From positions 1 to 64,000 of the forward strand of contig KE561145.1 in the NCBI GenBank assembly GCA_000442015.1: a DNA stretch of 64,000 bases, given 5' to 3'. Position numbers and translations under genes: made by a program. A model generated the notes under the pieces. That model was not told the origin of the DNA and ran no database searches. It saw nothing but the letters and a program-made list of their open reading frames with translations. Origin of the DNA: Rozella allomycis CSF55. Taxonomy: Eukaryota. Shown one piece after another: positions 9,239 through 64,000 of this stretch. How positions within the stretch are numbered: the first letter of the stretch is position 1; each line of letters begins with the position of its first letter.

Positions 9239-9341
9239 TAACATTTTACTGTATTAAATGATGAAATAAAAGGTACTTTTTTTTAAAAAAAAGTTAAAAA
9301 AATTTATTTAATAAGTAAATTTTTCTTCAAAACTTCAAGAN

Positions 9342-11440: not shown

Positions 11441-12988
11441 ATGAAAATAAGAGTTGACCTGGACAAACACAGAAAAATTTGGACCAAAATTTTTGACACG
11501 ACACTATACGGTTTTTTAGCTGCGGGAATATTTGGAGGAGTTTTTTTAGGAAGTTATTGGTTCGGAAGTAAGGCTAATATAACCGAAAATGATAAAACGC
11601 TAGATAAAAATGTTCTTGCAGAAAACATTTTGCCAATGAAAATAATGCTTTCTGGGGATCATGCATTACTTGAAGGTAATGTCTTTGAGCCCTCAAAACC
11701 GCAAATATCACCTTTTGTGGAATTGAATGGAATCTCTTTGTCAAAACCCGATGTTTCATATTCTTATCTTGATAAAGTCAATGAAGAAATAGCAGAGTCA
11801 AGTCACGCTCATGTATCCAAATTAATCGTGGAAGAAGATCATGTCACTCCATTTATTTCTGTATCATCTCCAAAACCTACAGTAAATCGCATAACTAACC
11901 TTAGCACCAAAAACGTTGAAAATGTCAGCCAAAACAAATTGGATAATCCACCGAAACCTATTTTCGTTGGCACAAACACAGTAAGAAACGGCCAAAGAAG
12001 GGAATTCACTTCCAATGCAAATGTGTTCAAAAATTATTATAAGAAACTTGAATGCCAAATTGCAGATGCTTTAAATGACAAATCTACTAAAACAACAACT
12101 CCTACCAAAGATAGTCTTAATCCAATTGCTCTGGAATCAGTACGTACCAAAGATAGTCTTAATCCGATCGCTCTTCAACCAGCACCTACCAAAGATAGTC
12201 TTAATCCAATCGCTCTTCAACCAGCAACCAAAGATAGTCTTGATCCGATTTCTCAGATGAAAATGAATAGAGGTTATTCGTATCTGAATCCTATTAGATT
12301 TGTTATCGCTGTTTTAGTCGGAATAGTCCTTAAAGTTAATGAATCCTTTATAAAGGCTATGTTAGGCAAGAAAGATCATAGAGATGTAGATTTGCCAGAT
12401 TTAGTAGATGAGCCCTTGACTTCACGCAATGTAGATGAAATTGTCCATAAAAACAAAGAAAGGAAGAAAAAAAGTCTTTATGAGAAAATAAGCTCATATT
12501 TTCAAAGAGTCAACAAGATTCCACGGCCACTATCGTCTTTGAAATATTCTGATCCCCATCAATTAGTCATGAGTTCAAATCAAAATAGCATTAGCAGCAA
12601 AAAAATTGAAGACTCCATTTCAAAATCGAATCGTTTTGAGTTTTTGAATTATTATGAAATTCTAGGTGTTTCTCCATTGGCAAAGCAGCATCAAATATCA
12701 TCAGCTTTTAAGAAACTTGCACTACGTTATCATCCAGATGTAAATATACTTTTTTGCACTAATTAGAAAAGCCGAGAAAACAATGATGAGTATTTCAAGA
12801 AAATAGTTGAAGCATACAATGTTTTGAACGATGATAAAAAGAGGGTCGAATATAACCAATTACTTCGCATAACAAACAAAAGTCCTATTGCAAGGGATAT
12901 TTTAGGGTATGGCGCCATTTTCGCTAGACTGTTTAATATTAAAAATAACTATTCCTTGCCCACTATTAAATTCAATGCTACAAAATAA
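11441..12988 (+). CDS. membrane-anchored protein with internal tandem repeats and a C-terminal DnaJ domain
   Basis: Hydrophobic N-terminal helix; NYYEILGV..AFKKLALRYHPD, then a 27-nt intron, then KSRENNDEYFKKIVEAYNVL. Confidence 0.75.
12101..12254 (+). repeat. coding minisatellite, about 3.7 copies of a 39-42 nt unit (TKDSLNPIALQPA)
   Basis: accaaagatagtcttaatcc-like unit repeated four times in frame. Confidence 0.9.
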
Positions 12989-13098
12989 ATCAAATTATTT
13001 GCAGATTTTATATTACATTATTTCATAAGCCACAAATCCATCAAAGTCACGTTTTTCGAATGAAAAAGGTACTTTCAGCCACCAAGCCACCATAAAAT

Positions 13099-13858
13099 AT
13101 GGGTCCAAAATTTTCTGTACTATTTTATTTTACTATTCTCTGTATTTGCGTTGCCTCAAGTCCTATAAAGCATGATTCAATGGCTCAAGCAAATGAAAAT
13201 ACAAGTAAGCTGTATCATACATTGGTATGTAGGTATCGAAATGCCGATTTGGGAATATCCAAAGCGAATTATATTCCCAGCGTTCAAAAGTAGTAAAGCT
13301 CAAAATGTGTTAAGCAAAATCCAATCCTTTCTTTCAAGGAAAGGGGTTTCAGAATCTATCAATCCAAATGACATCGGTACACACGAAGAAAGCAGTCACG
13401 AAAAGGTTTTGCCCCATTCATTATCTACGCCAGATATTGATTCTCTAAAAGATAGAGTACTCCAGAAAGATGGATTAGACGACAAGNTACTCCAGAAAGA
13501 TGAATTAGACGAGAAGAACATACAAAAAGTCGAAGCCCAACTTGATGGTATGAATAATGGAAGTGTACCACCTATGAATGCTAGTGTCCAAAGAGAGGAA
13601 AGTAAAGATACTCATATACCCAAAGAAAATTGCTGCCCTCGCGCAAATGTTAATGACAAAGTTCGTTTAAATAATGAATCAAATGAAATTCCACAAAGAA
13701 AAGACATAAATAATGANGACATAAATAATGAAACTATTGAAAATAAAAGCACCCTATACGTAGTCGGATTCACATTGGCAGCCCTTGTGTTTGTCAGCTG
13801 CGTTGCATTAGTTATTCGTAATTTCAAATACAAAAGCATGTTAAAATCGCATAAATAA
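13099..13858 (+). CDS. type I membrane/surface protein (signal peptide, low-complexity ectodomain, C-terminal TM)
   Basis: MGPKFSVLFYFTILCICVASSP joined by intron gtaagc...tgtag to an ORF ending LYVVGFTLAALVFVSCVALVIRNFK. Confidence 0.7.
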
Positions 13859-13879
13859 TAATAAAAACATGCTTCTTTA

Positions 13880-14679
13880 TTAAAATAGTTTTACTATTGA
13901 GTTTTTGTATAAGAGAATATATGATAGACCACTGGCCAATGTCGATGCACCAATCACATATTGTAAAACATATAACAATGCTGTATGGGATAAATCGTAT
14001 ACTTTAAAGAATAAAGTACCTCCAATAAGAGTAATTTGAAGAGCAGTATTCAACTAATTGCGAGTAAAACTAAGGCATACTTTACTAATCGTCAATGGCC
14101 TGATTTCAATTGAAGGAGTCTTCAAGTCAAAAAATTTTCTGATTGTTTTCTCTAAAGGTCAGACTATTTAGATTACCGGTGGAGTTAACATTTTGTACCT
14201 TAAATACAAAGTAGCACCTAATAGGCAAATATCTCGACCAATAATTAACGCTGTTAACCATGCTATCATAAATCTTAGANATGCTATAATAAATCTTAGA
14301 TGAATTGTAGTACTTGGGAGCAAACAAATTTTCCACAATGATAAAGTACAGCAGCTCATAAGTACTTTGTCGGCAAGAGGATCCAAAAATGTTCCCAGTA
14401 CTGTTTTCTGTCTAAACTTGCGAGCTATATATCCATCTGCATAAAATAAGAAGACTTTATTAACCATACTGCGTCGCTTAGCCCAGCAAAAACAAATCCT
14501 GTCAGGGCCAGAGGGTAGTTTTGATTCAAGATATTGTATGCAATGTAAGGAGATAAAATTAACCGTGCAGTAGTAAGTGCGTTTGGAAAAGTATATATAT
14601 TTTCTCTTTTTTTAAAGATTGAAAATGCCATCCTATTCTTTAAGATTAACTTTGATGAAAGAAAAGTATTGGACAACAT
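13880..14679 (-). CDS. CRD1: cardiolipin synthase (CDP-alcohol phosphatidyltransferase)
   Basis: ENIYTFPNALT, SDAxDGYIAR, LGTFLDPLADK, IIGRD, SKLNTALQ; has an N gap and a probable 1-nt insertion near 13930. Confidence 0.85.
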
Positions 14680-17677: not shown

Positions 17678-19573
17678 TTATTGTGTAGAAATGAGCCTAG
17701 TAATTTTCCCAATCCCCTTTGTCCTTCCTTCACGAAAGAGTAGTCTTTTTCCAAGTTGCATGTATTCAGGCTTTTTAACGAATCTGAAGCGTACAAACGA
17801 TCGATCGCCTGTCCTTAACACCTTTGACTGTTCTTTGTCACTGTTGGAAACAATCTCCATTATAGTTGCTGTTTGTCGAACAGTCCCACAGTGAATCATC
17901 GTTTGATAGCTGGGCTTAATTGTTGTCGAATGATACAATATAAGAACTTCAGCCTCGAATTCTATTGCAACGTACCCACAAAAAACACTAGGGTACCTCA
18001 AACAACCAGGGTCACTAATGTACTCTGCCAAAGATGGAGACGGACATGGTTTTGGTAATCCTTGTTTGTCAACCACCACCATTCCTTTTCTCAATTGATG
18101 TCTCTTTATTTTTTTCAAAGCTAACGTCGCACACTGGCCAGCAACGGTAGAATTAACATTAACTCTTTTCCTGTGAATAGATTTTATTATGCAAGGGAAA
18201 AATACTCCATGTTCATCAGGCCCAAAATAAAGCGTTTGGCCAACATCAATCTTTCCAGATTGCAAGTTCCCTGAAATCACTGTTCCAACACCCTATTAAG
18301 TATAGAGTAATAAACTTACAGGCACTGAATAGGTTTCTGTTAATTGATACTCAACAGGATCTTCACTGTGGTATTCTTGATATATTGGAAGCAAATTAAG
18401 AAAGCACTTTAAAAGATCCAAGCCAGCACCTGTCACATTAGAAATTTGAAATATCGGACATAATCTAATTTAGAGTTACTTCTGCGTGTTTACTTTTCAG
18501 TGACTAAATTATTTACTACTAAAATCAAATCATGGATTGATTTTATAAAGACCGGGGTTTTCTTGCAACCAGGGCTTTTAACCATTTTCGCCAATTGTTT
18601 CAACGTATCATCCAAAACATTAGCTGGGCACATATCAACTTTTGTAACAACTATGAAAAATGGAACGTTCAACGCAACAGCTAAACCTACATGCTCTTTT
18701 GTCATTCCAACCACCCCTGCATTCGATCCTACTATAAGCATAACAAAATCTGGTGAATATCCAGTCATCCCGAATACACTAAGAATTCATTTCAAAATAA
18801 TTACGTCGTCTTTAAATACTTTTCATGGCCGGCAAGATCAATGAACGTTAAAAGTTTAGACGACTGCATTGACACAGACTCCCAACTCATTTTCCGCAGG
18901 GACACAATCAAACTCTCATCAGCAATTTTCTCAGCCTGATTTATTTCCCCTGTTTTATTTTCTAATTTTTCTATGACTTTTTCAATTGTTTCATTTTTCC
19001 TTCCAATTATACTATGTGTTGTTGCTGGACCAACAACATTCCCATGCTCATCAAAGCCAAGTATTTCCATGCCCACAGAAGAAGTTCTCCCTGTTTCAAT
19101 TTCATGCGGATGTTTGAAAAGTGTAACACGAGCTTTACCACGCCAATTTAAATGTAATAATTACCATTACCCGTCATCCTCCATTCCTTTGGTTATCACA
19201 CCCAAAGTGGTGCTTTTTCCTGCATCAACATTTCCCACCACTGCGACTCTAACCTCTAAATTCAAGTCTGTGACACTGTCAGCCTTGTAACGACAAAGAA
19301 TGACGGATTGTTTTGGACCTTTGTCATCAACTGATGTGTAAATAGGAGTCGCCACAAAATTCAATTCTTCTGACACAACCTTGATATTTTTCAAACAAGC
19401 TAGCAACGAAGATTCGGTAAATGATTCGTCAGCATCAACAAAATTAATAGGCAAAAGAAATTCACCGCGAACGAGATTTTGTTGAAAGAAGTCCTTTGTT
19501 TCCTTGTCGGGGTCACGCTTTAAAATCTATATCTTGTTAATTTGTTGTGATATACCTGAATAGCATCGTTCAT
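17678..19573 (-). CDS. GTPBP1: GTP-binding protein 1 (translational GTPase)
   Basis: [62 protein letters not shown]. Confidence 0.93.
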
Positions 19574-25953: not shown

Positions 25954-27079
25954 TTACTTTGAATTCCATAGTCCTAAGAGAATTCCAATGATTACAATGA
26001 TTATTGAGAGTAACACTGAAAAGGGACCAAAAGTCGAAATAATGCCTAAATTAGATAAACGATGTAAAATTACAGAATGAAAGGAATGCTGGAATTGAAA
26101 ATCTGGCCATTTTATTCAAATCTTCTAATTGGAATGCTACAGTCGCAATGACATTATCTCTATGATTTTTAGTTGAAATAGTTTTTAATAACAAGACTAT
26201 CTCCGTTAATGATATTATTTCGCGGAATTTATTCTTTATCGGAAGACAAAAATCAGGTTCGCCGTTTAGAGAAATAATTTGGAGCTGTAATTGCTTTTTG
26301 AAGGCCAATATTTGATTAGCAGTAATAGAATCTTTTAATAAGTCCACTTTTATCGATTCCATCAATTTAAAGTAATCTTTTTTGAATTCGTCCAAAATCA
26401 AGTCAAGAAGATCCTTCAACTCTGTAAGAATTATAGATGCACAGTTTACCCAATTTCGAAGACAAGTTCAGCTCAGATAAAATATCCAAATTGGTGAAAT
26501 TAAACGTAATTAAAAGGTTATGAGATGACGAATATTGAAACAATTTTCCATGCTGGTCAATTATACTCCTCCAGTTTAAGGAATTTGTGAATAACTATTT
26601 TGAAACTATCATGAGTTTACATGAATAATAAATTCTTTTTCATCATCGTTTGGATTTTCAAGATGCAGCCATGCGGCGTTTTCTGGATTGTCAATTAAGG
26701 TTATGAAAGAAAAGTGCCCGGAATCAAGCTCTTCAAAACTTTCTGCTTGCAAAAATCCTGATATGGGCGTATAAAATGTTATCCTATTGTATTTTAGGGT
26801 GACGTTTTGAGATTTTGGCATAGAAATGCCCATTCCGTCTTTGAAAGCCTTAAGAGATTCCACTGCCCATTCACGCTTGATACGTGAATCGGTAAAAACA
26901 TTTTTATTCAAAACATCGACTATTGGTTCATTTGATACTAAATTCTGGATTGCAGCGGTTAAGGGGAAGGAGGAAGGATCAGGAGTTTGAGACAGAAAAT
27001 TTGGAAATTTAATGTGAGGATGTTTAGAGAAAGATGATTTGGGTCTATTTGGCGAAGAATCCAAAGAACTTTCAAGCAT
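25954..27079 (-). CDS. divergent CorA/Alr1/Mnr2-like divalent cation transporter
   Basis: RITFYT..AESFEEL..F..LI..AWLHLENPNDDE N-terminal motif; two C-terminal TM helices; no GMN motif. Confidence 0.6.
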
Positions 27080-34211: not shown

Positions 34212-34268
34212 AAAATTCAATGTGGCTAAGTTGCTAGTCTTCACAAAACCAAAAAATATAATGAATAA

Positions 34269-37200
34269 CTATTCTTTATTTACAGAATTAGATATGGAAT
34301 GGACACTGTGATTAATAACAGGCTTGGATGAGGTTTTTTGATTGACAGAATTCAGGCTCGGCGATTGATTCACAGTGTTATAATTCACCCAATACTCTCG
34401 GTTCCTTACTATGCCATCAATTATTATAGGAACGGGTGCAAAATTATTCAAGGTATCAAATAATGGCATACACACAATTTCAATAAACCCTCGCTGTGAA
34501 GATGCAACATTTGCCGTCTCGCGGTCCATAAACGCTGATATTGGTAGCCCAAGCTTTCTCTCCTGATCTCCTTGTCTAAAGAACTCTTCCAAAATTCGTT
34601 GCGTCCATATTTGTGTAATTGAAAATGACTTGGTTGGATTTGCTACATCTCCGCATTTAATCAAAATTTTGGCGAGCAAATTATGGTCATCCTTGTTCTC
34701 AAATGGAGAAAAAGTATTTCTATTGGAAATCTTTTTCGTTTAATTTGCGATTTTACCTTGGCCTTGAACGTGTTCACAATTTCAAAGTGATTAAACAAGT
34801 CAGTCGCAAGCACCTTCTCAATGACGCACATAGAAATTTACCAAATCTATTATAGATGATCGCACAGTCTTATATTCATGTTTAGGTAATGCAGAAAGGA
34901 AATTGCATTCAGGGGACTGCAAAATTTTAAATGAAGATGCTAAATGATGATTTTCTAAAACTGATTTGTCATTGTAGAGAATGGCCTTTTCATTGCCTGT
35001 TGCTATCAAAAAGTTGTTATTAAACCCTGGATGGTCAAAATCGTGTATTGCGGAAGCCACAAATAGAGAAAGCATATCCAAAGAGTTAAAGTAGCCCTTT
35101 AACGCTGGATGAGATAAAAAGAAAGACACTGCATGGAGAACATCGGCTGCATGGACGCTATTGTGGTCTATAAAACAAAACCGAAATGATTACATGGTAC
35201 GTCGGGATGATAGCCCTCCTCGATATGTACAATAAATTTTAAAAATAATTCTGTTGATATCTTAAATTGGCCTATAAGCCCATACTGTTGAAATAAATAG
35301 CATGTTAAGAATGCCAATGGTCTATTGCTGGTTGCTTCTGCAAAATCAAAGATGCCAAAATTCCATTCTGTTACAGATGCTATAATTGCATTGATTTTTG
35401 ATAACTGAGAAGTATTTTCAGGACACGTCTCTGGATATTCGGTAAGACAAATAGCATTGTAGCAATTTCCTTGCAGAAGCTATTAAATATATATTAAAAA
35501 ATTACTTGCTCAACAACGGGATTAACATTTTTAGGTAGTGGAGGTGCACCATAAACCGAGAAGGTAGATCCAGCAGCATCAGTCACAACTTGACTGACAG
35601 AATTAATTGTCGTTAGAGAGCCAGAAACGGCATTTTTAATTGCTTTTAATGTTCCATACTTTCATTTTACTTGAAATTGGTTGCGCTTGAACCGAAATGG
35701 ATGAATTCTCTGAGACCGTCTCTTTGTTGTTTAGATTGTCAAAGGCATTAGCCGATGTTTTCATAATGCTATTCCGTCTTTGTCTACTTGGAGTGCCAGG
35801 ATCCTTTATCGTTGAATTACTAGTATTTGAATTTATTAATAAATTGGATGAACTCTTCTTCTTTCTATTTGCTAATTCAGAAAAAAGCCAGGCCTATTTT
35901 ACAAAGATAAAAAAATTACTTCTTGCTCAGGATCTATTTTAAGTTGCTCTTGATTTTCAAAATCTGGCTGATTCAAGTTTCCAGAGTTTAACAATGTCAA
36001 TACATGAGTTAAAGTGTGAACTTGCCCCGAATTCAAATACGGATCTGCTAAAAGAGACCTTAAGGATGCTAATGCCTTTTCCAAAGGCGACTCTACATCT
36101 GCCAAGGCTTGATTGTTAAATGACTTTTTCAACCCCAGTAATTGTTCAGTTAGCTGACTATTTCTTAGATGCAATAATCTGGAATTGCAAAATTGAACCC
36201 TCAAATTCATTTCTGTTTCATATGCCACAAAACAAGAAATTATACCAGCCCCAATCAAACCCATATTAGTTGTTAGAAATCCTGAAACAACGTTGATCCC
36301 ATTTATGTTCATAATAGAACTGAAACAGATGATTACAGTCACAATGAATATTACGCTTTGCCAAAATCTAAATCTACAGAATATTATTAGCACTAGCATC
36401 ATAACCGACACAAATGTAGCTGACGTAAAGGGTGAAGAATGACCCTCAATGACTATGAATCTTATTATTATGCCAACTAGAATGGCAATGAATGTAAGGC
36501 CTAAGCCTATCATGGACATATTCTTTATGAAGAAAGGCTTTGGTAATAGGTAAGAGCACAAATAAGCAGCGAATAAAGGTGCCAAAAAACCCAACAATAA
36601 AAAATACAAATCTACAGTGAAATCATAAGAAGAGCAAAGAGTATTGCAAGGGCAAGATGAACAAAAATATCCACTCAAGTTTGTTTCTGCCGATGAAGAA
36701 CTTCTACGTGAAACAACATCTAGGTAGAACTTCCCTTGAGCAGGATAGGTTAAAAGAATCCATGTTAAGGCTAAAAGACTAATTAAAGATCCCGCTAGAA
36801 ATGCAAACCTCCACGCACGAATGATTCTTTCATAAAACCATTTTTGATATTCTTTTTCGACATCCGCATTTTTGAAACTTAGCGAATAATTAAACACTTC
36901 ATATTCCTTTGGCAACTTACCATTTGAGTAATTAAGAGAACTACCTTTACTCTTTTTTAAAGGATCAATTTGTTGCTGTGAATCACTGACTGATCCTATA
37001 AGATGGTCGCCAGGAGAATTTAAAGCAGAAAATGGATTGAATTCAGATTTCTGTTGCTTTTTGAGAACACTATTGGAGGAATTGTTTGAGAGTGACGACT
37101 TTTGTCTTTCTTGACGAAAATGACCAATTAAACTTGGTCTCTTTGTTGATGATGTAATTGCATTTGCATCTGAACTCATTCTTCTGCTAGCTTGTAATTG

Positions 37201-47950: not shown

Positions 47951-49312
47951 TTAAATGTATTCTTCAATATCCATCAAATAGTCTTTGAATTTAAGAGCAA
48001 ATAATTTTGCCACGTCCTCTACCTTGAACGGCTCATTTTGATAAACTTGCCACTCATGGAAGGTACCAGCCTCTATGGTAGGTAAAGTGACGTCTCTCTG
48101 TACTTTATTGAAGTACCTAACAATAATTTAATTCTATATATACTTCGATTTTATCGCTGGATAATGACAATCATCCCCGAGTATTGAAGAAATTACAAAG
48201 CTTATTACACAAAACAGCCAGAATTACTGATACAGTTGTTCGTCTGTTATATTTAAATTTGCCACACCAATTAACCCCATGAATACATTTATAAATTGGT
48301 CCACAAATGTTTTGAAATCATATTGGTCGTCCAAACAATTTGGGCTTTCATTAATCAAAATTAAATCAATAAACTTATCGACGCTGTGAGGAATTGTCTT
48401 CAAGGTTGTAAAAGAAAAATTTCTTTTACGTGTCGTTAAATAGTAATCCCTTGACATCTATAAATGAATCTACAGGATTGCCATACTAGAAACGGTTTAA
48501 TTACAAGGTTAGTTTTTAAATGAGCCTGAAGCTTCTTAATTGACTGACCAGCAGATATACAATAAACCAGTGTTGACGGATTGATCTTTTGAAGATAGTA
48601 AAATATAACATTACTGATTTCCAAAGATCTTCCATACGGAAAAATTGGCTGCTTGGGACGCAAATGAACAGAAGAGAACTTGATTTTGCAACATTCTCAT
48701 TATCGAAGCTGATTTGAATTCCAAGTTTACTAAATTCTGGATATTGATCAGGTCGTCTAGTGGACACAAAGATTTGATGGGCACTATAATTTGCTCAATA
48801 AACACGTTAATGATTCTTACAGTAATCTAATAAGCTATAAAGTATTCTTTGCCCCATATTTCCAAATCCAATAATTCCTATTTTGAAATTATCGTCTTTC
48901 CACGGATCTTGACCCTGTTAATTATAGTTTAGTTGATTACAGATACGCACGATGGCATCGATGAAGTTTTTTGCTCGTCATCTGATGACACGATACCATC
49001 TTCATCATGTAGCGTGCTTTCATTATATGAATTTGAGTTCGAAAAAGTAGATTTGCTTCTAATATCACCAATCTTAGTTTCCTGCCTTTCAGCCCTGTCG
49101 TACACGATTTGTCGCTGGAATGATTCAGTTACGAGTGCCATGTGAAGGCATTGTAGTATTATACTCTCTTCCATTGAATGATTTGCTTCTCTAATTTGGG
49201 CGTATATTTTTGAGTCAGTAGAACTATCTTGAATCGATTGTAAGACTAAATTTTGTGTATATCTTCTCACATTGTCGATTTTCTTTTTGCGTTCGCTTAC
49301 AGACGTTATCAT
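47951..49312 (-). CDS. NADP-dependent oxidoreductase domain protein (NOXRED1/P5CR-like)
   Basis: KIGIIGFGNMG, IFVSTRRPD, FDNENVA..LLFICVP. Confidence 0.7.
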
Positions 49313-49364
49313 GGAATAAACAATAATTCGGACTTTACAAAAAATACTACAAAAATACAAAAAC

Positions 49365-49954
<590 letters not shown>

Positions 49955-50040
49955 AATTTATGTTTTGATGTGTAAATAAATCGCTATGAGCATGTATACA
50001 AATTTCACCGACCAAATTTTGATAAATTTTGTAAATTGAA

Positions 50041-52238
50041 ATGGCAGAAAAGAGGGATTTTTTCTTTGGCTCAGGGAGTGACGACAAAGGAATACTTTCT
50101 GGCGACGAAAATACAAGACCTTTATTCTCTGGTGTGTTCTGTCCAGATAAGAAGTTTGGAAGCACTAGCTCTCGAAAGAGAAAGCGTCGTCTCAAACAAA
50201 TTAAGTATGATGAAAATGTGAGAGAAGGAGGATATCAATCTGATTCAGTGATAACACCAAAAAAAGCTTCGACGAAATTTACCTATGCATGTAGCAGCAC
50301 AGATTCTTCAATGGGTTCTTCAAGAGAGGACTCATTTAATCGATTAGGAGAACTAGAAGATATGAATATGGACAAGGACAGTGAAAATGAGGTTAAAAGA
50401 AGATATAAAGTTCTGCCAGTTAATATGTCTTCAAAAGAAGTTTTCAATGCTTTGAATAAGAGAAAATTTAGAAAAAAGTCAAATGTATTTGTATGTGATA
50501 GTGAAAAGTCGAACACTGGCATTTCTTTTAATAAGATATTTGGTTTAAACAATCATGTTAATAGGATTAAAGAAATAATATTCTTTCCTTTGATGTACCC
50601 TGAAATATTTAAGCGACTAAATATTCGTCCACCAAATGGTCTCTTATTTTATGGACCCCCTGGTAAACAATAGTCTAAACCTGGAAAAGGGACTGGCAAA
50701 ACAATGATGGTTCGATCTCTTGTGAATGCTTGCTCGAGCCACTTAAAGCAAAAAGTTGCATTTTTTAGCAGGAAGGGGGGTGATTTACTGGACAAATATA
50801 TTGGTGAAGGCGAAAAACAGCTAATTGAATTGTTCGAAATGGCCAACGCACTACAGCCTTCAATAATTTTCTTTGATGAGATTGACGGTAAGGGGTTTAA
50901 TATAAAGGAAAAAAGGGTTAGCTCCAGCGAGAAATAGCAAAAATCAAGACCAGTCGCACATATCTCTAGTCAGTACCCTTCTTGGTTTAATGGATGGAGT
51001 CACTTCACAGAGTAGCCATGTTGTTGTTATTGGGGCCACCAATAGGCTTGACAATATTGATCCAGCGCTTAGACGCCCAGGTAGATTTGATTATGAAATG
51101 TTCTTTCCACTACCAAACGAAGACACGCGCTATGAAATTTTAAAAAATCTTACAGTTGAAGAATTTGCATCGCCATACGATTTATCCGATGATTTCATAA
51201 GAGAGTTGGCCAAACGGACTGAAGGCTTTAGTGGCGCAGACATAAACGGACTGTGCAAAGAAGCAGCGATCAGAGGGCTACGCAAGTCTTGTTCTGAAAT
51301 ATATGATATTAGCAAACCAATTAATTATTCTGTAGAAAAAATGAAATCTATTATTGTGGATAGTCAGTGCTTCAATGAAGCCATGGAGAAGGTCGTAGGG
51401 TCTACTACAAAATATAGTATCGCTAATCCAAGATTGAAAGAATTGGAGCCAATTTATTATGAATTGCTTTCTGATCATTTTCATTTAGCGCTTGAAACAA
51501 TAAACAATTTTTTGCATGATATTCCTGGTAAATAATATCGTTTCTTGTCAAAGGAAATCGATACCCAAGGATATTAATCAGCGGTGTTCGCGATAACGGG
51601 CAATCTGAGGTCCTCTCTGCGTGTCTTTTTGACCTTAAGAAAAGAGGTATTCATATTGAATACCTAAATATTGCAGACCTTTGCTTCAAAGTAATCAATT
51701 CTAAGCATAATGTTAGAGTCCTGATGCAGTCTTAACCAGTGCTATTTCTCAATGCTCAAAACATCAGCCAAGTGTCCTTTGCATTCAAGACTTGATTTCT
51801 CTTCATAACTTAACGGATTCTGAAAATTCCGCAAATATTTGGATACTTTTCGCCCATGCGATTCAGTATTTTATTAAACCCGGCGACAAAATAATTGTCG
51901 TGGCTTGTTCTGATGTGCCTTTCTCAAAACTTCCTGAGGAAATACAAGGCTTATTTTCATCAGATTACATTGAACTTAACTCTTTAGCACAAGTAAAACA
52001 AAATGTAAATCTGGACAAGGAAAAAATTCGAAGGTTGCTAGAATTCCGCATTGAAGAATTTTCCGCCTTTGTGAAAGAAAGCTTAAATAACAGCCAGGTA
52101 TCCATTGATAAAGCCAAACTTTTGGAAACATTATTGTCTCGCTCTCCTAAACTCTCTCTGGGATCATTAGAATCATTGTGCGCAATGTTCTTTAAAAACA
52201 TTAAAACGTCATTGAATACCACCAATGTATTTGAATAA
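50041..52238 (+). CDS. ATAD2/Yta7-like AAA ATPase, no bromodomain evident
   Basis: LFYGPPGTGKT, KVAFFSRKGGDLLDKYIGEGEKQL, PSIIFFDEIDGLAP, DPALRRPGRFD. Confidence 0.85.
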
Positions 52239-52295
52239 ATTAAATTATATAACATCCATCTATAATTAATTTTTCATTGAATTATTCAAGGAAAG

Positions 52296-54594
52296 CTATA
52301 TTTTATTTTTTAGCATCGATTTAGCAATGAACAAGTATTTGTCGACCGCTTCTTCAATTCTCTTTTCTAAACTTTTTCCACTTCCATGCCCAGCCTATTT
52401 GATTGTAAACTCATATTTACCTTTGTTTCAATCCTTATTAAAAGAGGATGATCATTTTTGGGCAAATTATACTGAAGTTCAGATATCCATTTGTATGAAT
52501 GAAGTGGCACAACTCGATCGTCATGATCACTGGTCATTACTAGCACGGGTGGATATTGCTTTGAAGAATCAACGTTATGGACAGGCGAATATCTTTTAAA
52601 AATGTGAAGAATGTATACTTTGACAAACATTCGAAATGCTCTACAATGTCTGGGTTACCATATTCATCCATCCAAGCATGGCCGATTGTAAATTTATGAA
52701 ATTTCAACATATCCAAAACCCCAACCTCGGCGATTGCACACCCAAATAATTCGGGTGCTTGATTTACACATGCCGCCACTAATAATCCTCCATTGGACCC
52801 ACCATTAATCGCCAACAATGAGGGGCAAGTGTAATTATTAGCAACAAGGTACTTCGCAGCCCATTGAAAGTCATCAAAAACATTTTGTTTTTTATTTAAG
52901 ATCCCGGCTTTATGCCATTCCTCGCCATATTCGCCGCCTCCACGCAAATTCGCGATTGCAATAGTCATATTTAGCTCATCTGCCGCTGCGGCCATGCTTG
53001 AACTAAAAAAAGGTGTCAGAGAAATGTTAAATCCCCCATATCCATATAACAGACATGGTGTTTGTCCATTTCTTGGGATGGATCTTTTATTAAAAATGAA
53101 CATGGGGATTCTCTGAGAATCTTTGCTTTCATAGAAAACTTGCTCTATAACGAATTTAGAGGGTTCAAACCCCACAATTTCATCTTGCCTCCAAATGGTT
53201 GGGGTTGTGGTCAAGTCAGATAGGTCATATTCATACACCAATCCAGGGGTATTGAAAGAATAAAACTTAAAAAATACAACAGTATCCTTTTTTCTGCCTT
53301 TAATGTAAGCAACAGAGCCAATATCTAGTGGAATGCAAGTCAGGTGAGTCCCAGACAAGTCAAAGACATCAATTACATTCTGTTTTCAAATCATGAATCG
53401 TTTACCTTGACATCTTTCATATAAACACAAATAAGTTTATTTTTTGCAACGCAGTAGCATGATTCTAACACGTCTGCCGCCTCAGGAATAACAACGTCGA
53501 CCTTTAAAAGAAATGTAAAATTAATACTAATGAAGTGTTATTGATGTCTATTTTAATCAATTTTTCCTTTAAAGCATTTGAATTGGTCTTCAAGTAGAAA
53601 ATATTATCTTCATTTGTAATGTATTCGTAACTGGCTTCAAAATCATCGAAAAGCTTAATTATTTTGTGCTTGGAAAAATCACAAATGTCTAATTGTTGCA
53701 CAAAAAGTTTGTTAGCATTTTCTGTAGAGCGACTTGTGGAAATGATTAGATACTTCCCATCATCAGACACAGTGGCGCTGGGCCGCCAATATGGCTCATC
53801 GGAATATTCAAATATTAAAATATCGTCTTTTTGGCAAGTTGCTAGTTTATGGTAGTACAATTTCGGAAACTTATTTAGGTTAGTTTCGGTACCTTTATCT
53901 ATTTGTTTTATTTGTGGATAGCGCTTTATATAACAAGGACAATTTTATTACAGTGTAGAAAAATCCATCATCATTATGTACCCAGGAAATCGAACTAAAT
54001 TTTACCCATTCAATTCTGTCTGGAAGCTTTTTCTTCTCCACGTCTTGAATTTGAATTGTCACCCAGTCACTGCCATTACATGATACACCAAAGGCAAAAT
54101 ATTTCCCAGATTCACTGAAAGAATATGTGTTCAAAGACGCACTCCCGTCAACTGCCAACTCATTTGGGTCGAAGAATACTTCTCCTGGGTCACTTATTGT
54201 TCTTGTTTGGTATATTTTTCGTATAAATTTAGAAAAGGTTTCTTACGAATGATTAAATGTTCCATCATTATAGAAATAATAGTAGAATTCACCCGATTTA
54301 AAAGGTGCTTCAGTTTTTTCGTAGTTGAAGAATTTTTTGAACCTTCTACATTCATAACAGTATTGTTACCTATCTTTAAGTTTGCTTCTAAGAGGATCAT
54401 CATTGATATACTCAAAGAATAGTTCATTTTGTGACGAAACAAATGCCTGGTGAAACTAAATGATTACTTCATACCCTCGTTTCATCAGAGTCAGGATTTT
54501 CAAGCCATGAATAGGGGTCAGAGATTGATCTACCACAACAAAGGTATTTAGAATTAATATCTCTCGTCACAAATGGAAAATTGAAGCTGCTCAT
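52296..54594 (-). CDS. PREP: prolyl oligopeptidase (S9A)
   Basis: DPYSWLENPD, LYGYGGFN, GGSNGGLL, DHDDRVVP, AGHG. Confidence 0.95.
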
Positions 54595-54635
54595 TTGTAA
54601 AATTCACAAAAACAATATTACGAAATGTCATAAAT

Positions 54636-55649
54636 TTATATAGAAGCATTATAGTTTTGGTTGCATCCGTTAATACCAAAGGTAAGGAATCGTCCCTTTT
54701 CTGGGAATCTATAGTTTCTTCCCTTTGTATCAATCACTCTAAAGAAATAGTTCTGGCAGCTTTGATTTCCTAATAAATTCCCATCATTGAGTTTGAAATA
54801 GTAGACACCTCTGTTTGATGAGCCATATAACAAGGAGAGACCCCTGGCCTGCTGTCCGATTTGAATCCATATTTTAGATGGCGGTGCATCATTAACATAA
54901 GTGACTAGAAAAAGCAGGTTATTTGTGTTAAGGGAGGTCAATTTAGGACTTACATGCGAGCCAATAACCAAAGCAGAGTTATAATCTGTATTGCTAGCAC
55001 CTCCAAAATCCTATTTTGTTAAATCGTTTGTCCCATTACTTGGATCACGCAGTTATTTGAATTGGCCACACCTAACTCTGTCGCTGACGCCGCAAGTAGG
55101 TTTTCACAGTGTCCCATTTTTGATCTAATCCACCCATCCTAGAATATCCATTTAAAGAATAGATTACCATTATTTCCACTGGGGATATTGGACCAGCATA
55201 AATATTTTCAGCAATCCAAGCAGGTTTCTTATAAAATGACCATATCCTGCTTGACCAAGAGCAAGATCCAAACTTGTAGCATTCACTGGGGCAAGTATCA
55301 TGTTGCCAACATCTAAATTGATGAACAAAATCTTGAATACCCTGGACTGCGCTGCATTGAAGTACAATGGAACCTTCCGGATTGAGTTAGTGCCATATTC
55401 CAAAATAGATGTCTAGCAGGACTTCCGTTGTAGAGACAATTTCCGGTACCAGCGTTGGAAAAATTGTTCAAATATGATTTTGGATCTGGATTGGAAAGAC
55501 ATTTCAAATACTTTACCTATTCTAACGGCGTTAGTTAGAGTGTGTATAGTTCTCTCCAAGTACGTGGTTTGAATGTCTCCCTGGAAAGTGGTGTATTGCT
55601 GTGAAAACGCATTGCTTATAAGAAAGGCCAATAAAGTAAACGATTTCAT
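54636..55649 (-). CDS. secreted CAP/SCP-domain protein
   Basis: Signal peptide; TLTNAVR, RFHCTSM, QHDTC, AENIYAG, WIRSKMGHCENL. Confidence 0.75.
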
Positions 55650-55704
55650 GTCTTTAGCAGGATCGGGATCGGAAAATAAATTGGAATGGACTAAAAATAC
55701 TTTA

Positions 55705-57166
55705 TTAGCGCATGGTAACTAATTCTTCAGCTGATGTTGGATGTATTGCTACGGTGTTATCAAAATCCTTCTTTGTAGCGCCCATTTTAATTGCGACAGA
55801 GAAGCCTTGAAGAATTTCATCGGAAGACGGGCCAACTAAATGTAGCCCCAAAATCTTTTCATCGTCACGAGAACAAACCATTTTATAAGCAGTGGGAACT
55901 TTATTTTTTGATAACGCGTAAAACATTCCATTAAAGCGAGTTTTATAAATGACAATATTTTCACTTCCATATTTTTGGCGGGCTTCTTCTTCAGTCAACC
56001 CAACTGTACCGGCGGGAGGATGAGAAAATACTACAGTTGGAATATTGGAATAGTCCAGTTTGGAATCGGACTTACCGCCAAATATGCGATCAACCAATCT
56101 TCGACCCGCTGCTATGGCGACTTTGACATAAACTTTAATTTATTACCTGGTGTTAATAAAGCTTTGCCGCAAACATCTCCCAAGGCGTAAACACCAGGAC
56201 AGCGAGTATTTTGATACTCGTCAACAAGAATACATCCATTTTCATCACATGTAACGTTAGCTTTTTCCAAGTTCAAGTAATTGGAATTAGGAGCTCTACC
56301 AATTGCCCAGATCACTAATTCATTGTCTTTCTCAGTTTCAACGAGGTTTTGGTGGGAAAATTTGACGTCGATATTTCCGGAATCGCTTTTTACTAAAGAT
56401 TCAACGGAGGCATTTCGGATTATTCGTATACCACTTTTTTCCATGTGTTCAGAAACTGTTGAAGATATTACTTCATCGAAATGGCGCAAAACAGAGCCAT
56501 ATCTGCACAAAATAGTTGTATTGCAACCAAAAGTTTGAAGTACGTTTGCTATTTCTACAGCGATATATCTTTATAGGTTGAAAAATTAAAATACCCAGAG
56601 CCAATAATAAACGCTTTCTTTGGGAGCTCCTTAAGGCCAAAGAAGCCATCTGAGGTTACACCCAAATCTGATCCGGGAATCGATGGTATAATTGGATATC
56701 CACCTTTTCAATGCGCTAATCATTACATACCTGTTGCAATTAATATATTTTTAGCAGTTAAAAATGAGCTCGTTCCATCCTCATGCGTAACTCTAAGAAT
56801 ATTCGGTTTTTCAAAACAGGCAGATCCAAATACCACATCTACTTTTTCCTTGTCCAAATTTCTTTCATATATTTTCCTGAGCCTTTCAATATATTCTTCT
56901 CTATTCTCTACAAGGGTTCTCCAATTATGACCGTTATTTTCCACGTCGAATCCGTAGTCTGAAGAGACAGCAAATAACTCGTTTAATGATGCAGCATTGT
57001 ACATAATCTTTTTCGGTACACAGCCAAGGTTTACACAAGTCCCGCCTAAACCATTCCTCTTTGACTCTATCAACACCACATTTTTGCTGTAAAGAGATGC
57101 AGCTCTTCTTGCAGACGCTAGACCACCTGAACCACCTCCTATAACAGCGAAATCGTAATACTTCAT
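55705..57166 (-). CDS. GLR1: glutathione reductase
   Basis: [41 protein letters not shown]. Confidence 0.96.
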
Positions 57167-57311
57167 ATTTGTGAATTTTCTAGACGGGAAAACTTTCAGA
57201 ATCAATAAAAAATTGTTGTGGTACATTGCACTGTATTGTTAGTCATTTAAGACAAAATCTTGAAAGAATAGTAAATCATAACTGGCCCTTGAGAAAAATC
57301 ATAAACACAAA

Positions 57312-58317
57312 ATGGTAAAAGGATTGTTTCATATTGATAGAAACTACGAGTTCGACTTTCGCATAAAGTTTCCACTTTAGATCTCGATGAAAACATGAAA
57401 ATCCAAGAATTTATAGACTTAATTTGTGATCAAGAAGCTAAAGAGAGTCTTGGTACCATCAGGACCGGCGTGCCTCCGAGATCGGTGGCGATTGCAAACT
57501 TAAATATGTCACTCAAAGATATAGGAATTAAAGATAGAGATACAATAACTATTGAAAATGGCAATACATTCAAAAGAAAAACCATTTCCAATGAAATGAT
57601 GGTAATAAGAAAAATGGCAGATGATAATTCTTGTTTATTTAGTTCAATCGGGTACAATTTAGACTGTAAAAATCATGAGATATTTGTTGGAAAATAAACG
57701 TGCATGCCAGGCTGATGCCTTGCGACAAAAAGTCGTAGAGTTTATTCTCTCTCACCCAGATGACTATAATTCCGTAATTTTAGGTAAAAACGTATCGGAA
57801 TATTGCCAATGGATTTCTAAACCTACATCTTGGGGTGGTAACATTTACTATAGATTAAGGACAAGGCGCGATAGAAATTTCAATCTTTTCAAAACTATAT
57901 AAAATACAAATAGCATCAATTGACGTTAAAAGTCTTAGAGTAGATCTATTTGGTAAATTCAAACTTCTTTTCATTTGCAGGAGAGGAAGACAGTTTTCCT
58001 GATCGCTGCTATATTGTTTACGATGGTATTCATTACGACTGCATTGTTTCTACATATAGCAATAATGAAACCGCTCAAGATATAACAATTTTTTCGTCAA
58101 AGGATGATTTTGCCTTGGCGTCAGCAATTTCAGTTGTTGAAGAGATTTCAAAGGTATTCAATTCTTAAAAATGATAGATAAGAAAAATATGTTTACAGAT
58201 TTGGCTAATTTCACAATCCGATGCGAGACTTGTCATTCTGGCTTCATAGGTACTGATGACGCTCAAAGACACGCACAGGAAACTGGCCACACTAATTTTG
58301 CAGAATTTAAAAATTAA
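57312..58317 (+). CDS. OTU1: OTU1/YOD1 deubiquitinase
   Basis: MADDNSCLFSSI, WGGAIEI, YDGIHYD, C2H2 finger CETC..HAQETGH. Confidence 0.92.
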
Positions 58318-58389
58318 AATTAATCTATTAAAAAATAAATGTTCAATGCGTGACTTCGATTTTTTCAGGGGTTGTCATTTGTCATTATT

Positions 58390-59228
58390 ATGTTAAAAAG
58401 ATTTCATTTTATTCAAAAACGTTATTTGCATAAAAGGTTTTGGAAAACATCAGTTGTTCGCCCAAATGATAAAGGTAGTTTTTGTTAAATGCTATTATAG
58501 GGCTGTACGAAATTCTTCTTGATAGCAAACCCATTAAGGATCAAAAGGGAAGACCATTTACCTTAAAGTCGGAGATAATGGCAAATTTAGTATCTCTGGA
58601 ATGGAATATGCAGCCGCAAATGTTTAATCCAAACGACATTATTTTGGTAATCACCAATGGCCTCTGAAATTTAGTTTGATATTCTAAATAGAGCAAGAGT
58701 AATAGAGGAAAATACTAGTCTACGAAAAGAAATCATGGTTAACGATCTGTTCAGATATCTTGATACAGATACTCTGCGATACTTTGAACAAACCGACAAG
58801 AATTTGGTAAAGTTGCAGGAGTCTAATTGGCTCCCGTTGGTAGAATGGGCTAGTCATTTGTTGAATACTGAATTAGAAGTAGTCAATGGTATTATTGGCT
58901 TGACAAGTTCATTGGACAAGGAAATAGTTTCACAACGTATTTTAAACTTGACAAAAGATGTGAATCATAACACATTTGCTGGTATAATTTTAACCCGATA
59001 TTTTATGTAGCTTTTGAAAGAGCCGTAATATCTTCAAAGTCCATGATTGTCGGGCTAGCCTTAGTACTTGGCAAGATTTCTTCAAAGGAGGCAATCGAAA
59101 TTTCCCTTTTAGAAATTAATTATCAAAAGAGTAGGTGGGGTTCCATTGATGAATTTCATCTGCTTGAACCTGCCACCTTACAAAGAGTGTTTTCATTGGT
59201 AAATTTGCTGAAATCGTATAATATTTAA
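58390..59228 (+). CDS. ATP12: mitochondrial F1-ATPase assembly factor
   Basis: KRFWK, ILLDSKPIK, LEW, YLDTDTL, EINYQKSRWG. Confidence 0.85.
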
Positions 59229-59251
59229 ATAAAATACAATTTATTCAACTT

Positions 59252-59833
59252 TTAAAATTTGGATGATATCGATTTCTTCTGCATTCCCCTTCGTTTCCTT
59301 GCATTAATGAGCCATGTCGAGACTTGCTTTATGCTGAGGTTAGCTCGTTTCGCCAATTCTTCTCTTTCTTTTCCTGTACAATATGGATAATCGCGGTGAT
59401 CTTTGAGCCAATTTTCCAAAACTATTAGTGATTCGACAGGATGTTTATTTTTGATTGTTTCAAAGTTGGATCTTTCACTAGACTGCGAAGATATTGAAGG
59501 GGAATTCGGACAGGATGATGGAGTTGGTGGACATGCAATAGAATTATTTGAATACTCAAAATTATCTGTTTTAATTGCTTCAGAAGGCCAAATGTATTGT
59601 TGTAGAGCAAATTCCCTAATCTTTTCCCTAGTTTCTTCCAAGTAAGACATGTAATCAGTTGGCAGGTAATCAACCAACAAGCGCATGTAATGATCCATAG
59701 ATAGTAAAAACAAGTTGAGATCCTTATTGTCGGTGTCACTATAATTTAGTGATTGATGGATAGTTTGAAGTGTCTCAATATGTCTCATGACAGTTTCTGA
59801 TGGGATTGAAGTCAAAGAGTTTGTCGTCATCAT
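59252..59833 (-). CDS. TALE-class homeodomain transcription factor
   Basis: LENWLKDHRDYPYC..KQVSTWLINARKR. Confidence 0.88.
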   Translation of the reverse strand: MMTTNSLTSIPSETVMRHIETLQTIHQSLNYSDTDNKDLNLFLLSMDHYMRLLVDYLPTDYMSYLEETREKIREFALQQYIWPSEAIKTDNFEYSNNSIACPPTPSSCPNSPSISSQSSERSNFETIKNKHPVESLIVLENWLKDHRDYPYCTGKEREELAKRANLSIKQVSTWLINARKRRGMQKKSISSKF

Positions 59834-59993
59834 TTTTCTCCAGGGGTTTACTCTTCATCTTGGCAAAATCTGGTAGGTGTCAAAGTCGTGTCAAAGGAAA
59901 TGACAGGGGTGTTAATTGGCATGATTAGCAAACGTGGCGCTGTCAACTCATTTTGACTTTTCTCGAAAAAAGGAATTAAAAAAAGATAAGCGT

Positions 59994-61784
59994 TTATTCA
60001 AAATCGTCAATGTTAAGATTTTTGGTGTCGGCCGCAGACGCCAAAAATTCTAGTGAATTTTGATGACCCCTAATTGGAAAAAATAGAAGAATAGTACTCT
60101 CTAACGTCCAAATTTTCTGATTGGGACCACTCTAAACCCTAATAAACTGATAAAAATTAAATTACAGAGCTCAATGGTTCTTTAATCGGAGATGGTGCTC
60201 TTGACGACGTGTGCGCGCTTTGAGTTGCTGATTCTGATAGGACAATTTTATTGGGATCATCATCATGATGAGTGGGATTGTTGCATTTATTAACAAAATT
60301 TTTAATTTCGTTTAAAGTTTTCACATCCAAAGCGTCAATTTCTAACTCTATTTCGTCCGTTTCACTTGTTTTAAGAGTTGGCATGGACTTTTGAATAATG
60401 TCTACAACCATTAAAATCTGATTTTGGTTTAGATTATTAATGTCTTCACTTAATTTCTTTTTTTCTTCAAAAGTCAAAGGCCTATAGAGTGGCTTTTGCA
60501 CCGATGGTTTTGCCGGGGTAGACACGGATGTAGCTGATTCAGGTTTCCTTTGTGGTTTTCGCTTTTTGGCACGTAATTGGTTTAATTGACTTTTTAAGTT
60601 TTGTATTTGAGCCTTTATGGATTTTATAGCCCTAGAGTCTAAAGTCTGTAAGGGATAAATGACTTACCTTCGTCGGACGAATACTCTCCATCTGTTTCAT
60701 CTGAAGACTCATCGAAATCGTCTGTGAAAATAGGTTTATCTTTCCATTTATTTAAAAACACATTCTCGAATTTGTTGCACATTTGAACAATTTCAGAGTC
60801 TGGAGGATTGAAAGTTCTACAATTGTTAAACATTAACAAGACGTCGTCGTGGAATTCATCAGAGGTGCGATATTCACGGGAATCAATTTTCTTTTTGATA
60901 GTAGAAAGGTCCATTGGGTGCTTAATAATGTCAAAGTAGGTAGGAACTCCAAGGGCAATAGGGTCTACAGGTTCCAAGAATGGCCATGCGATATCTTGGT
61001 AAGACTTTTTCGTCAAGTCTTTCCAAATTTGCAAACAATATTTTAAATGTTCATTTTGAGTATTTTTTCTTACAACTTGATTAGCAATGCTGCCTCTGGC
61101 TCTAGAGGCACGTTTAACATCTGGTGAATGCATAGAGTTACTATTCCTTCGCTTCTTTATCTATAAGTTTTAATATGCGTTTTTACTCGCCGTTCATCGT
61201 CATAAAGAGATCCTACTGGTGATTGTTCAGTAGGCATTTTGGTCAAGTATGAATTAAAAGACTTTTCAAGATTTTTGGCCATCTTTGAGATAGGAGATTC
61301 TGATCCATTGTATACGAAGCAATTATTTATCATCAATTTAAAATCGTTTATAAACTCATCAGCACTTTCATATGCCGCAGAGTCTAATTTTTTGCCCATA
61401 GTGCTAAGATCCATAGGCACTTTAATTATCGTTGGATAATCAGGAATGTTCAAGGCAATGGGGTCAACCGGCAACAGGAATGGTGAGGCATCTTTATGGC
61501 GCCTTAAGGCCTTTAAAATAGTTGTGCAATACTTCAATTGTTCTCGAACTATTGTCCCTTTTGGCCTAGTCGATCCATCGTCTTTGGACACCTGTCTTAA
61601 CTCACATATTCTTATACTTGGTCATCTTGCCCCGGAAAATTACTGCCGGTGTCAGATCTCAGTCCAGAACTATTCATTGACGAATCATAAACACTTTGGA
61701 AAACACTATTGTTAGATCTGCATAAATTAATTAGATAAATGTTAAAATAATAAAATAAATCACATCATTTCGTAATTACCTCAT
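59994..61784 (-). CDS. BDF1: BET double-bromodomain plus ET protein
   Basis: Two bromodomains (PFLLPVDP..YN, WPFLEPVDP..FN) and ET domain LTFEEKKKLSEDINNL..EIELEIDAL. Confidence 0.93.
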
Positions 61785-62777: not shown

Positions 62778-64000
62778 ATGTTCATATCTCTAGATGATTT
62801 TACACTAGAAGAAAAGGTGGGGGAAGGCACATTTGGGTATGAAGAGTATTAATTTTATTAACTTGAGAGAAGTTTATAAAGGACTGCACAAATCTAGCGG
62901 AGAAAAAGTAGCCTTAAAGCGTTTGTTGGTACATAAGAGAGAAACTGGGGTAATTAAAATCAAATATTTTTTAAAGTTTCCTCTCACCTCGATAAGAGAA
63001 ATTAGCGTGTTACAAAGCCTGATGCATTTAAATATAATCAATATTCACTCATTTTGTACTGGCCCCGGTGAATCTGGCGACGATATTTACATGGTATTTC
63101 CATACATGGAACATGATCTTACTGGTATTTTAGAGAATCAAACAATCAAATTGTCTAATTCCATTATTAAATGCTATATGAAGCAACTTTTTGAAGGTTT
63201 ATATTATATTCACAAAGTAAGACATATTTTTCATCTTGATGCTGGCTGGTTTTATCCACAGAGATATTAAGGCTTCAAATTTATTGATTGACAATAACGG
63301 AAATTTAAAAATAGCTGATTTTGGCCTTGCCAGAAAATATAATTCAATCACTTTGACTCCAGGTGTGGTGACAAGATGGTACAGGGCTCCTGAAGTATTG
63401 CTAGGATTAAAAGAGTATACCCCTGCTATTGATATTTGGAGTGGCGGGTATTTGGACTGATTTTTCATAAACAGATGCGTTTTTGCCGAAATGTTTAAAA
63501 GAGAGCCAATTTTTCAAGGTTCTTCTGACATTGATCAGCTCGAGTTAATAATAAAATATCTCGGAAATATTGATGAGCGGAATATGCCGGGTTATAAAAA
63601 TTGTATTGTTTCACCAAGAAGGCTAAACAATCAAGGAGGAAGCGAACAGTTAAGATTGTATCTAAATACGTACTATTTATCAAATTCTGGAACATTAGTT
63701 TTATCCAAGATAACACTGCTATCGAGCTAATAGAAAAAATCCTATGCTTAAACCCGCACACTCGCTTAAAAGCGTCCAGTGTCCTTACCGACAACTATTT
63801 CTGGTCTTTTCCACTCCCAATAAAAAAGGAAGAGTATTCGCAACAAAGCTATGTTATTTAGGATACCTTCATTCCCTAGTAGTCACGAAATCGATAAAAG
63901 AAAGCCTAGAAAACGAGAACTTGAAACGAAATATAACCGTATCACTTTACCATATATAAAATAGACATTAATTTAGGCAAGAATAATTCCATTCTCTCAA
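62778..64000 (+). CDS. CDK9/Bur1-like cyclin-dependent kinase (ends at 63964 or runs off the window after a further intron)
   Basis: [63 protein letters not shown]. Confidence 0.9.

Follow-up and report, generated by a model that had tools for sequence, protein, structure and literature searches.

Introduction

Few signals in eukaryotic genes are as invariant as the AG with which U2-type introns end. Populations of ultra-short introns occur in Paramecium (about 25 nucleotides, nt), in chlorarachniophyte nucleomorphs (18-21 nt) and in Stentor (15-16 nt), and to our knowledge the introns of all three keep GT-AG. In U12-type introns, the 3' end is set by its distance from the branch site and the terminal dinucleotides are loose. 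Here we analyse the first 64,000 nt of contig KE561145.1 of Rozella allomycis CSF55 (hereafter the window, meaning this whole stretch of DNA), in which the prolyl endopeptidase gene (PREP) carries a candidate intron of 27 nt that begins with GT and ends in CG.

The TG and CG ends described so far ride on a nearby AG. In human U2-type introns, TG 3' splice sites are recorded from 36 genes, always beside an AG and never as the sole site (PMC2374985, Szafranski et al. 2007). For Drosophila, Table 3 of PMC4528330 lists a similar alternative splice for 22 of 23 GT-TG introns and for all eight GT-CG introns. In Ganoderma, 19 GT-CG and 22 GT-TG introns stand against 89,855 GT-AG introns in Table 1 of PMC11590231. 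As for Rozella, Whelan et al. 2018 (PMC6349667) describe putative introns of about 30 nt in the S23 gene of R. allomycis, with premature stops and without the strong motifs of microsporidian introns. Our search of the literature on Rozella introns, which did not extend to the 2013 genome paper (James et al.), found nothing on 3' terminal dinucleotides or non-AG ends.

A candidate 27-nt intron ending in CG

On the minus strand, positions 54246..54220 of the window read GTAAGAAACCTTTTCTAAATTTATACG (27 nt), flanked by ...AAT CAT TC on the 5' side and by A AAA ATA TAC CAA on the 3' side. If this sequence is retained, an in-frame TAA follows at once (TCG TAA). Its excision yields ...YNDGTFNHSKIYQTRTISDPG... 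and ..YNDGTFNHSKIYQTRTISDPGEVFFDPN.... We hold with moderate confidence that 54220-54246 is a U2-type spliceosomal intron, most likely cut at 27 nt after the CG so as to give a working PREP enzyme. The donor, GTAAGA, has the extension complementary to U1 and U6; GTAAG is found at the start of 13 among the 107 local introns, and 99 of the 102 introns in the training set of our splice-site model begin with GTA. In length (27 nt; the local mode is 26-29 nt) and AT content (0.74; the local mean is 0.745) the intron resembles its neighbours. A CTAAA lies 9 nt from its 3' end; apart from A/T richness and an (A)(T)AG end, no branch motif at a set position is seen in the local introns. It lacks the 3' terminal AG that defines the U2-type GT-AG class.

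Beyond position 5 of the intron the first AG occurs only at 45 nt, and the lengths that would end in AG from this donor are 45, 54, 62, 65 and 68 nt. The 45-nt form (54202-54246) is in frame and loses the residues KIYQTR. The 18-nt tail by which the two forms differ (54202..54219, minus strand) is coding under the 27-nt form, where together with the split Ser codon it specifies KIYQTR, and intronic under the 45-nt form. A preliminary description of this locus had given the coordinates, the GT and CG ends and the TAA of the unspliced reading, all of which are read directly in the window. It had also pointed to the 45-nt AG alternative and to the conserved Tyr that goes with KIYQTR, and both points are likewise correct.

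A profile was built from 97 full-length PREP homologues, against which three isoforms were scored, each minus its final residue. The scores were 921.2 bits for the 27-nt form, 907.0 bits for the 45-nt form and 907.8 bits for the retained form, with X at the stop, so that the 27-nt form beats the 45-nt form by 14.2 bits. No homologue among the 97 is gapped in the six columns of KIYQTR; 94 of them have the Tyr, and the residue before it is L, M, I or V in all 97. Residues 2-31 of PREP exon 3 align with residues 67-96 of pig PREP (1h2w_A), and residues 6-88 of exon 4 with residues 104-187. These offsets (65 and 98) can be reconciled only by exactly one split codon between the exons, and the 27-nt form is therefore free of gaps against pig PREP. 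The 45-nt form drops pig residues 99-104.

Among the longer proteins searched, none derived from transcripts was found to carry the junction. A metagenome scan for close relatives with the same intron, in which a deposited PREP model (P0121) served as the query, returned 80 loci with a best identity of 51%, none of them close.

The local intron population

We predicted the introns of the window with our own dynamic-programming gene parser, which uses codon log-odds and GT..AG introns; a second run added splice-site weight matrices and a length prior. Without the prior, 80 introns were obtained, 46 of them at 26-29 nt and the others scattered in length. With the prior, the run gave 114 GT-AG introns, 107 of which measure 26-31 nt (26 nt, 38; 27 nt, 23; 28 nt, 25; 29 nt, 16; 30 nt, three; 31 nt, two), and seven lie outside this range (15, 22, 55, 62, 67, 107 and 150 nt), counts which are approximate, since the parser is crude and mis-framed the 5' exons of PREP. 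The parser's own model of PREP was set aside, and the intron model of this gene was made separately. None of the 114 predicted introns falls at 32-54 nt, which makes a 45-nt intron an outlier, as the preliminary description had held when it placed 45 nt beyond the local size range.

In 63 of the 107 introns there is at least one unused internal AG, and such AGs occur at every position up to within 2 nt of the end. The 3' end is thus not settled by an AG alone; position would settle it. A skipped AG backed by homology is found in PREP intron 1, in which an AG at 19 nt is passed over for one at 28 nt.

Other candidate non-AG introns in the window

When non-AG ends were permitted at a penalty, several introns of odd length gave way to introns of 26-30 nt, two of which are backed by homology. 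Brute-force scans for further non-AG introns returned largely noise, with a site in a GTPBP1-like GTPase gene as the sole standout. This putative intron (19144..19170, minus strand; 27 nt, phase 2; GTAATG..AAATTG, that is GT..TG; GTAATGGTAATTATTACATTTAAATTG) is the cleanest non-AG case. In the alignment with human GTPBP1 (9ypg_jj), residue 117 of its exon A falls on residue 220 and residue 1 of exon B on residue 223, and under 27-nt excision residues 221-222 are filled exactly by an Asp and a split-codon Gly. From this donor, the only AG within 70 nt, at 38 nt, would shift the frame, and every in-frame GT-AG option costs at least 14 residues. A public partial model of this GTP-binding protein (P0122) takes the best of these options, a 69-nt intron, and is without 14 conserved residues just past the P-loop. 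Canonical introns put to the same test are equally collinear: the exons on either side match positions 1-47 and 50-271 in KTI12, 9-67 and 70-131 in AAA, and 1-31 and 36-63 in DnaJ.

The second case is an intron in a CDK-like protein kinase gene (63217..63244, plus strand; 28 nt, phase 0; GTAAGA..GCTG, that is GT..TG; GTAAGACATATTTTTCATCTTGATGCTG), which is probably a non-AG intron as well. The exons around it match positions 14-116 and 118-182 of the Pkinase profile; the GT..TG form scores 144.1 bits summed over both exons and restores GLYYIHK-AGFIHRD. A 55-nt intron from the same donor to an AG removes the HRD loop and leaves a match to profile positions 127-182 only (64.8 bits). The final G is retained in all three non-AG ends (CG, TG and TG), and both of the 27-nt introns, those of the PREP and GTPBP1-like genes, contain an in-frame TAA.

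Three further sites were seen in unconserved sequence. The parser prefers a 30-nt GT..TT intron (34254-34283, minus strand) over a 15-nt AG intron in the tail of a phosphodiesterase gene, and a 28-nt GT..AT intron (25968-25995, minus strand) over a 22-nt AG intron in a gene without a Pfam match. At 1437-1465 (minus strand) a kinase gene has a possible 29-nt GC-AG intron, the GT-AG alternative to which would be 107 nt long.

The CG end in the genomic DNA

Four read sets (X2, X4, X5 and X6) were compared with the window over 48000-60000; all of their contigs are DNA contigs and run continuously across every intron. The X2 contig covering 49626-55623 differs from the window at eight sites and the X4 contig covering 48000-58118 at 17. 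All eight and all 17 differences are tabulated, and none lies within 54202-54246. Word depth at the contigs covering PREP is 74 in X2 and 91 in X4. There are no gaps over PREP in the contigs of X2, X5 and X6; X4 has one, an insertion at 55012. At the CG site no indel occurs in any of the four read sets, which excludes a spurious insertion of the C and with it the idea of a true intron of 26 nt ending in ..TATAG. At 54155, which is 65 nt from the site, X2 departs from the window and X4 is the same as the window, so that the CG is present on at least two distinguishable haplotypes. The CG end is genuine DNA and not a quirk of this assembly.

A word share of 0.82 in X5 and X6 was considered as a sign of complementary DNA and traced instead to sequence differences. 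Insertions of 7 nt relative to the window were found at 50016 and 58371 (TTTTGAT in X5 and X6, TTGTCAT in X2 and X4).

Alternative explanations

An alternative to a cut at the CG is a canonical 45-nt GT-AG intron (54202-54246), with an enzyme that lacks the six residues, perhaps since a recent change of AG to CG or the gain of a C forced the use of the next AG. We consider this unlikely, and set out here together the points that weigh against the 27-nt cut, which we infer from sequence comparison. The in-frame AG sits 18 nt downstream of the CG end, and the 45-nt form is the only in-frame GT-AG intron from the PREP donor short of 54 nt. It is also the form adopted by both deposited models, P0001 (RKP21847.1) and P0121 (EPZ32533.1), which read ..FNHSTISDPG... 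The 18-nt tail is 78% AT, and introns average 74.5% (sd 6.6) and exons 60%; the tail is thus nearer to the introns, a weak signal at a length of 18 nt. The flagged intron looks one change away from a consensus end, ..TATAG or ..TATAAG, and in other organisms introns whose sole acceptor is not AG are almost unknown (PMC2374985; PMC4528330). When KIYQTR was swapped for 1000 stop-free hexapeptides translated from non-coding DNA of the window, the scores averaged 916.1 bits (sd 2.65), and 921.2 bits was reached by 51 of the 1000, which corresponds to a P of about 0.05 for the residues themselves. Since random hexapeptides score nearly as high, the bulk of the 14-bit gain comes from the avoided gap. 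In the kinase gene, a canonical in-frame intron of 25 nt (GTTTAT..TAAG), 20 nt upstream, scores 130.1 bits and keeps HRD while replacing GLYYIHK. The long contigs of X5 and X6 have 41 and 37 differences from the window, which are mostly unlisted (six of the 41 in X5 are listed), and a substitution at the site is possible there. The read-set check of the acceptor covered, among the three non-AG sites, that of PREP alone, and the approximate nature of the intron counts belongs to this side as well.

Against the 45-nt intron stands the PREP fold, from which it would delete residues that are ungapped in every homologue of the profile, at the cost in score given above, and stands its length, off the local range. 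A rule of using the next AG would moreover frameshift the GTPBP1-like gene at the AG at 38 nt, just past the P-loop, and would stop or cripple the kinase, in which AGs follow at 45, 47 and 55 nt; both genes are otherwise intact, with long conserved open frames. The public models fit the output of a predictor restricted to GT-AG, since P0122 gives up conserved residues in order to find one. The 27-nt excision put forward in the preliminary description thus gains from the collinearity of the exons, the score and the two additional candidate non-AG introns, and has the 45-nt AG of both public models against it. The alignment with homologues that had been suggested there as a check came out clearly as to gaps and modestly as to the particular residues.

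A second alternative is that the acceptor is dead, so that the intron is retained and the TAA leads to decay of the mRNA; the gene would then have become a pseudogene recently, or would be a null allele hidden behind an intact copy. Splicing normally stops before its second step when the AG is mutated, and the haplotype-like divergence among the read sets (0.2-0.45%), together with the mostly unlisted differences of X5 and X6, makes masked alleles conceivable. We nevertheless find this explanation very improbable, because the whole frame of 695 residues is intact, as are the catalytic motifs, and the CG stands on contigs that differ 65 nt away. Among the differences listed between the window and X4 or X2, 12 lie inside PREP, one of them intronic and 11 coding. 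Eight of the 11 are synonymous, with a random expectation of 0.203 (binomial P = 2.6e-4, or 4e-3 at an expectation of 0.30), indicating that the CG-bearing haplotypes diverged under purifying selection. This argues against a dead PREP and does not tell the 27-nt product from the 45-nt product. In addition, with about 115 acceptor -2 positions in 64 kb, 0.12-0.26 hits carried by the assembled haplotype are expected at a divergence of 0.2-0.45%; the Poisson probability is 3e-4 to 2e-3 for at least three hits and 7e-3 to 3e-2 for at least two. Three hits are far above this expectation, which excludes neutral decay or masked null alleles as an account of them.

The differences between X4 and the window are concentrated within PREP, at 52822-53768, with 11 in about 950 nt (about 1.2%), compared with a contig average of 17 in 10 kb. 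This segment of X4 is a locally diverged haplotype, its differences being mostly synonymous.

An error in base calling or assembly, the true end being AG (by substitution) or TATAG without the C, is hardly credible: the 11 isolated Ns of the window show an imperfect consensus, and removal of the C would leave the modal length of 26 nt and a consensus ATAG end, but the X2 and X4 contigs are identical to the window at the site with all their differences accounted for, and P0001, an independent model of 2018 that differs by one residue elsewhere, also resorted to the 45-nt AG. A ciliate code, in which TAA would stand for Gln and no intron would be present, was suspected in view of introns in the 25-nt class and was rejected because the exons are free of all three stops of the standard code, the frame ends at a TAG stop where the family ends, and the organism is Rozella. 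A U12-type intron was rejected because the donors (GTAAGA, GTAAGA and GTAATG) are not RTATCCTT and no TCCTTAAC-like branch box is present.

A proposed length-guided choice of the 3' splice site

Under the preferred reading, excision of 27 nt at the CG, the cut would join ..AAT CAT TC to A AAA ATA TAC.., at least in the transcripts that make working enzyme, and the downstream in-frame AG may yield a minor 45-nt isoform of PREP. Taken together, the three candidate introns suggest a length-guided and relaxed choice of the 3' splice site in Rozella, and tolerance of a base other than A at position -2 is the simplest reading of their ends. The introns of the window are nearly all 26-29 nt long, from which we propose that the 3' cut would be placed mainly by position, close to the 5' end and the branch site and at a constant spacing from them. 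The terminal G would be kept and the A at -2 would be dispensable in a minority of introns. In spliceosome catalysis, as known from yeast structures, the terminal G of the intron pairs with its first G.

That the same holds for the whole species can be put forward only tentatively, with less than even confidence: the Rozella spliceosome may measure about 26-29 nt and need the terminal G alone, with a few per cent of introns ending in CG or TG as the sole acceptor. By extrapolation from the two or three among about 117 introns found here, there could conceivably be hundreds of such introns in the genome.

The prolyl endopeptidase gene and its surroundings

The window is AT-rich, gene-dense nuclear DNA of R. 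allomycis, with a GC content of 0.27-0.37. PREP, a peptidase of family S9A, is encoded at 52296..54594 on the minus strand, from an ATG at 54594 to a TAG stop at 52296-52298, in nine exons separated by eight introns, and its product is 695 residues long when the 27-nt intron is taken out. The exon of 253 residues at 52621-53379 (minus strand) matches P0001, the 'prolyl endopeptidase-like protein' of R. allomycis CSF55, at 100% identity, and P0001 falls in the same cluster as P0121; the identity shows the organism to be the cryptomycotan parasite Rozella, in agreement with the fungal source assumed in the preliminary description. A Peptidase_S9_N domain is matched on exons 3 and 4, P0001 carries precomputed PF00326 and PF02897, and a 710-position homologue profile matches the product from end to end in a single match. 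The N-terminal beta-propeller and the C-terminal S9 catalytic domain by which S9A members are recognised are both found in the product. The Ser-Asp-His catalytic motifs, GGSNGG, DHDDRV and GHG, stand on columns that are invariant across the 97 homologues.

Seven of the eight introns are GTA..AG introns of 24-28 nt, and only 54220-54246 ends in CG. All lie on the minus strand. Intron 1 (54447..54474; 28 nt) runs from GTATGA to CCAG, and P0121, reading DETRAFVSSQ, agrees with this length. Intron 2 (54346..54369) measures 24 nt in the present model, GTAACA..GTAG, and the public models extend it by 3 nt to the next AG (54343-54369, 27 nt), so that they have one Arg fewer; the tandem acceptors are ..GTAGAAG, and the disagreement with P0001 and P0121 begins at residue 67. 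Intron 3 is the flagged one (54220..54246; 27 nt, phase 2, donor GTAAGA, 3' end ACG). The remaining five are GT-AG introns: intron 4 (53924..53951) of 28 nt, and introns 5 (53502..53527), 6 (53380..53405), 7 (52593..52618) and 8 (52395..52420) of 26 nt each.

Elsewhere in the window, degenerate tandem arrays of the CCCTAA type, which resemble telomeric repeats, occupy 9355-9841, possibly an interstitial or mis-joined telomeric tract. The surrounding region, 8357-14280, contains several of the 11 Ns.

Implications

If the proposed cuts are real, non-AG ends would be productive sole acceptors of ultra-short introns, and would offer a handle on the roles of sequence and geometry in the choice of the 3' splice site, geometry being here the distance from the branch point, in a lineage that adjoins the intron-poor Microsporidia. 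The public gene models of Rozella would then be wrong at such sites, with PREP lacking six residues and the GTPBP1-like protein 14, and the HRD loop of the kinase would likewise be lost if its public model takes the 55-nt AG. Reference annotation confined to GT-AG would systematically drop conserved residues, and phylogenomic and comparative studies that use Rozella, a key taxon, would inherit the errors of the models.

Comparison with known systems

The deposited models (EPZ32533.1, RKP21847.1 and P0122) represent the same genes with the same other introns, apart from the 3-nt shift of the acceptor in PREP intron 2. They differ from our models in their use of GT-AG, by which conserved residues are lost, six in PREP and 14 in the GTPBP1-like protein. 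The putative introns of the S23 gene were treated, in the available part of that report, without reference to their 3' terminal dinucleotides, which are the subject here.

Compared with the ultra-short introns of Paramecium, nucleomorphs and Stentor, those of Rozella are similar in their very narrow length peak and in the in-frame stops within introns whose length is a multiple of three. Rozella differs from those systems as a parasite related to fungi that uses the standard code. The proposal made here shares with U12-type introns a 3' choice based on distance and a tolerance of non-AG ends; the donors differ, and the Rozella introns are not members of that class.

As for frequency, GT-CG and GT-TG introns together make up about 0.04% of the introns tabulated for Ganoderma (PMC11590231), and the two or three in about 117 of the Rozella window would be 40- to 60-fold more. 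The candidate non-AG introns of the window are like the human and Drosophila TG and CG sites in having a U2-type donor, in keeping the last G so that only position -2 departs, and in having an AG shortly downstream. In contrast to those sites, it is the non-AG site of Rozella that would give a functional protein, the distance to the next AG is 11-18 nt, and such ends would occur locally in about three of 117 introns.

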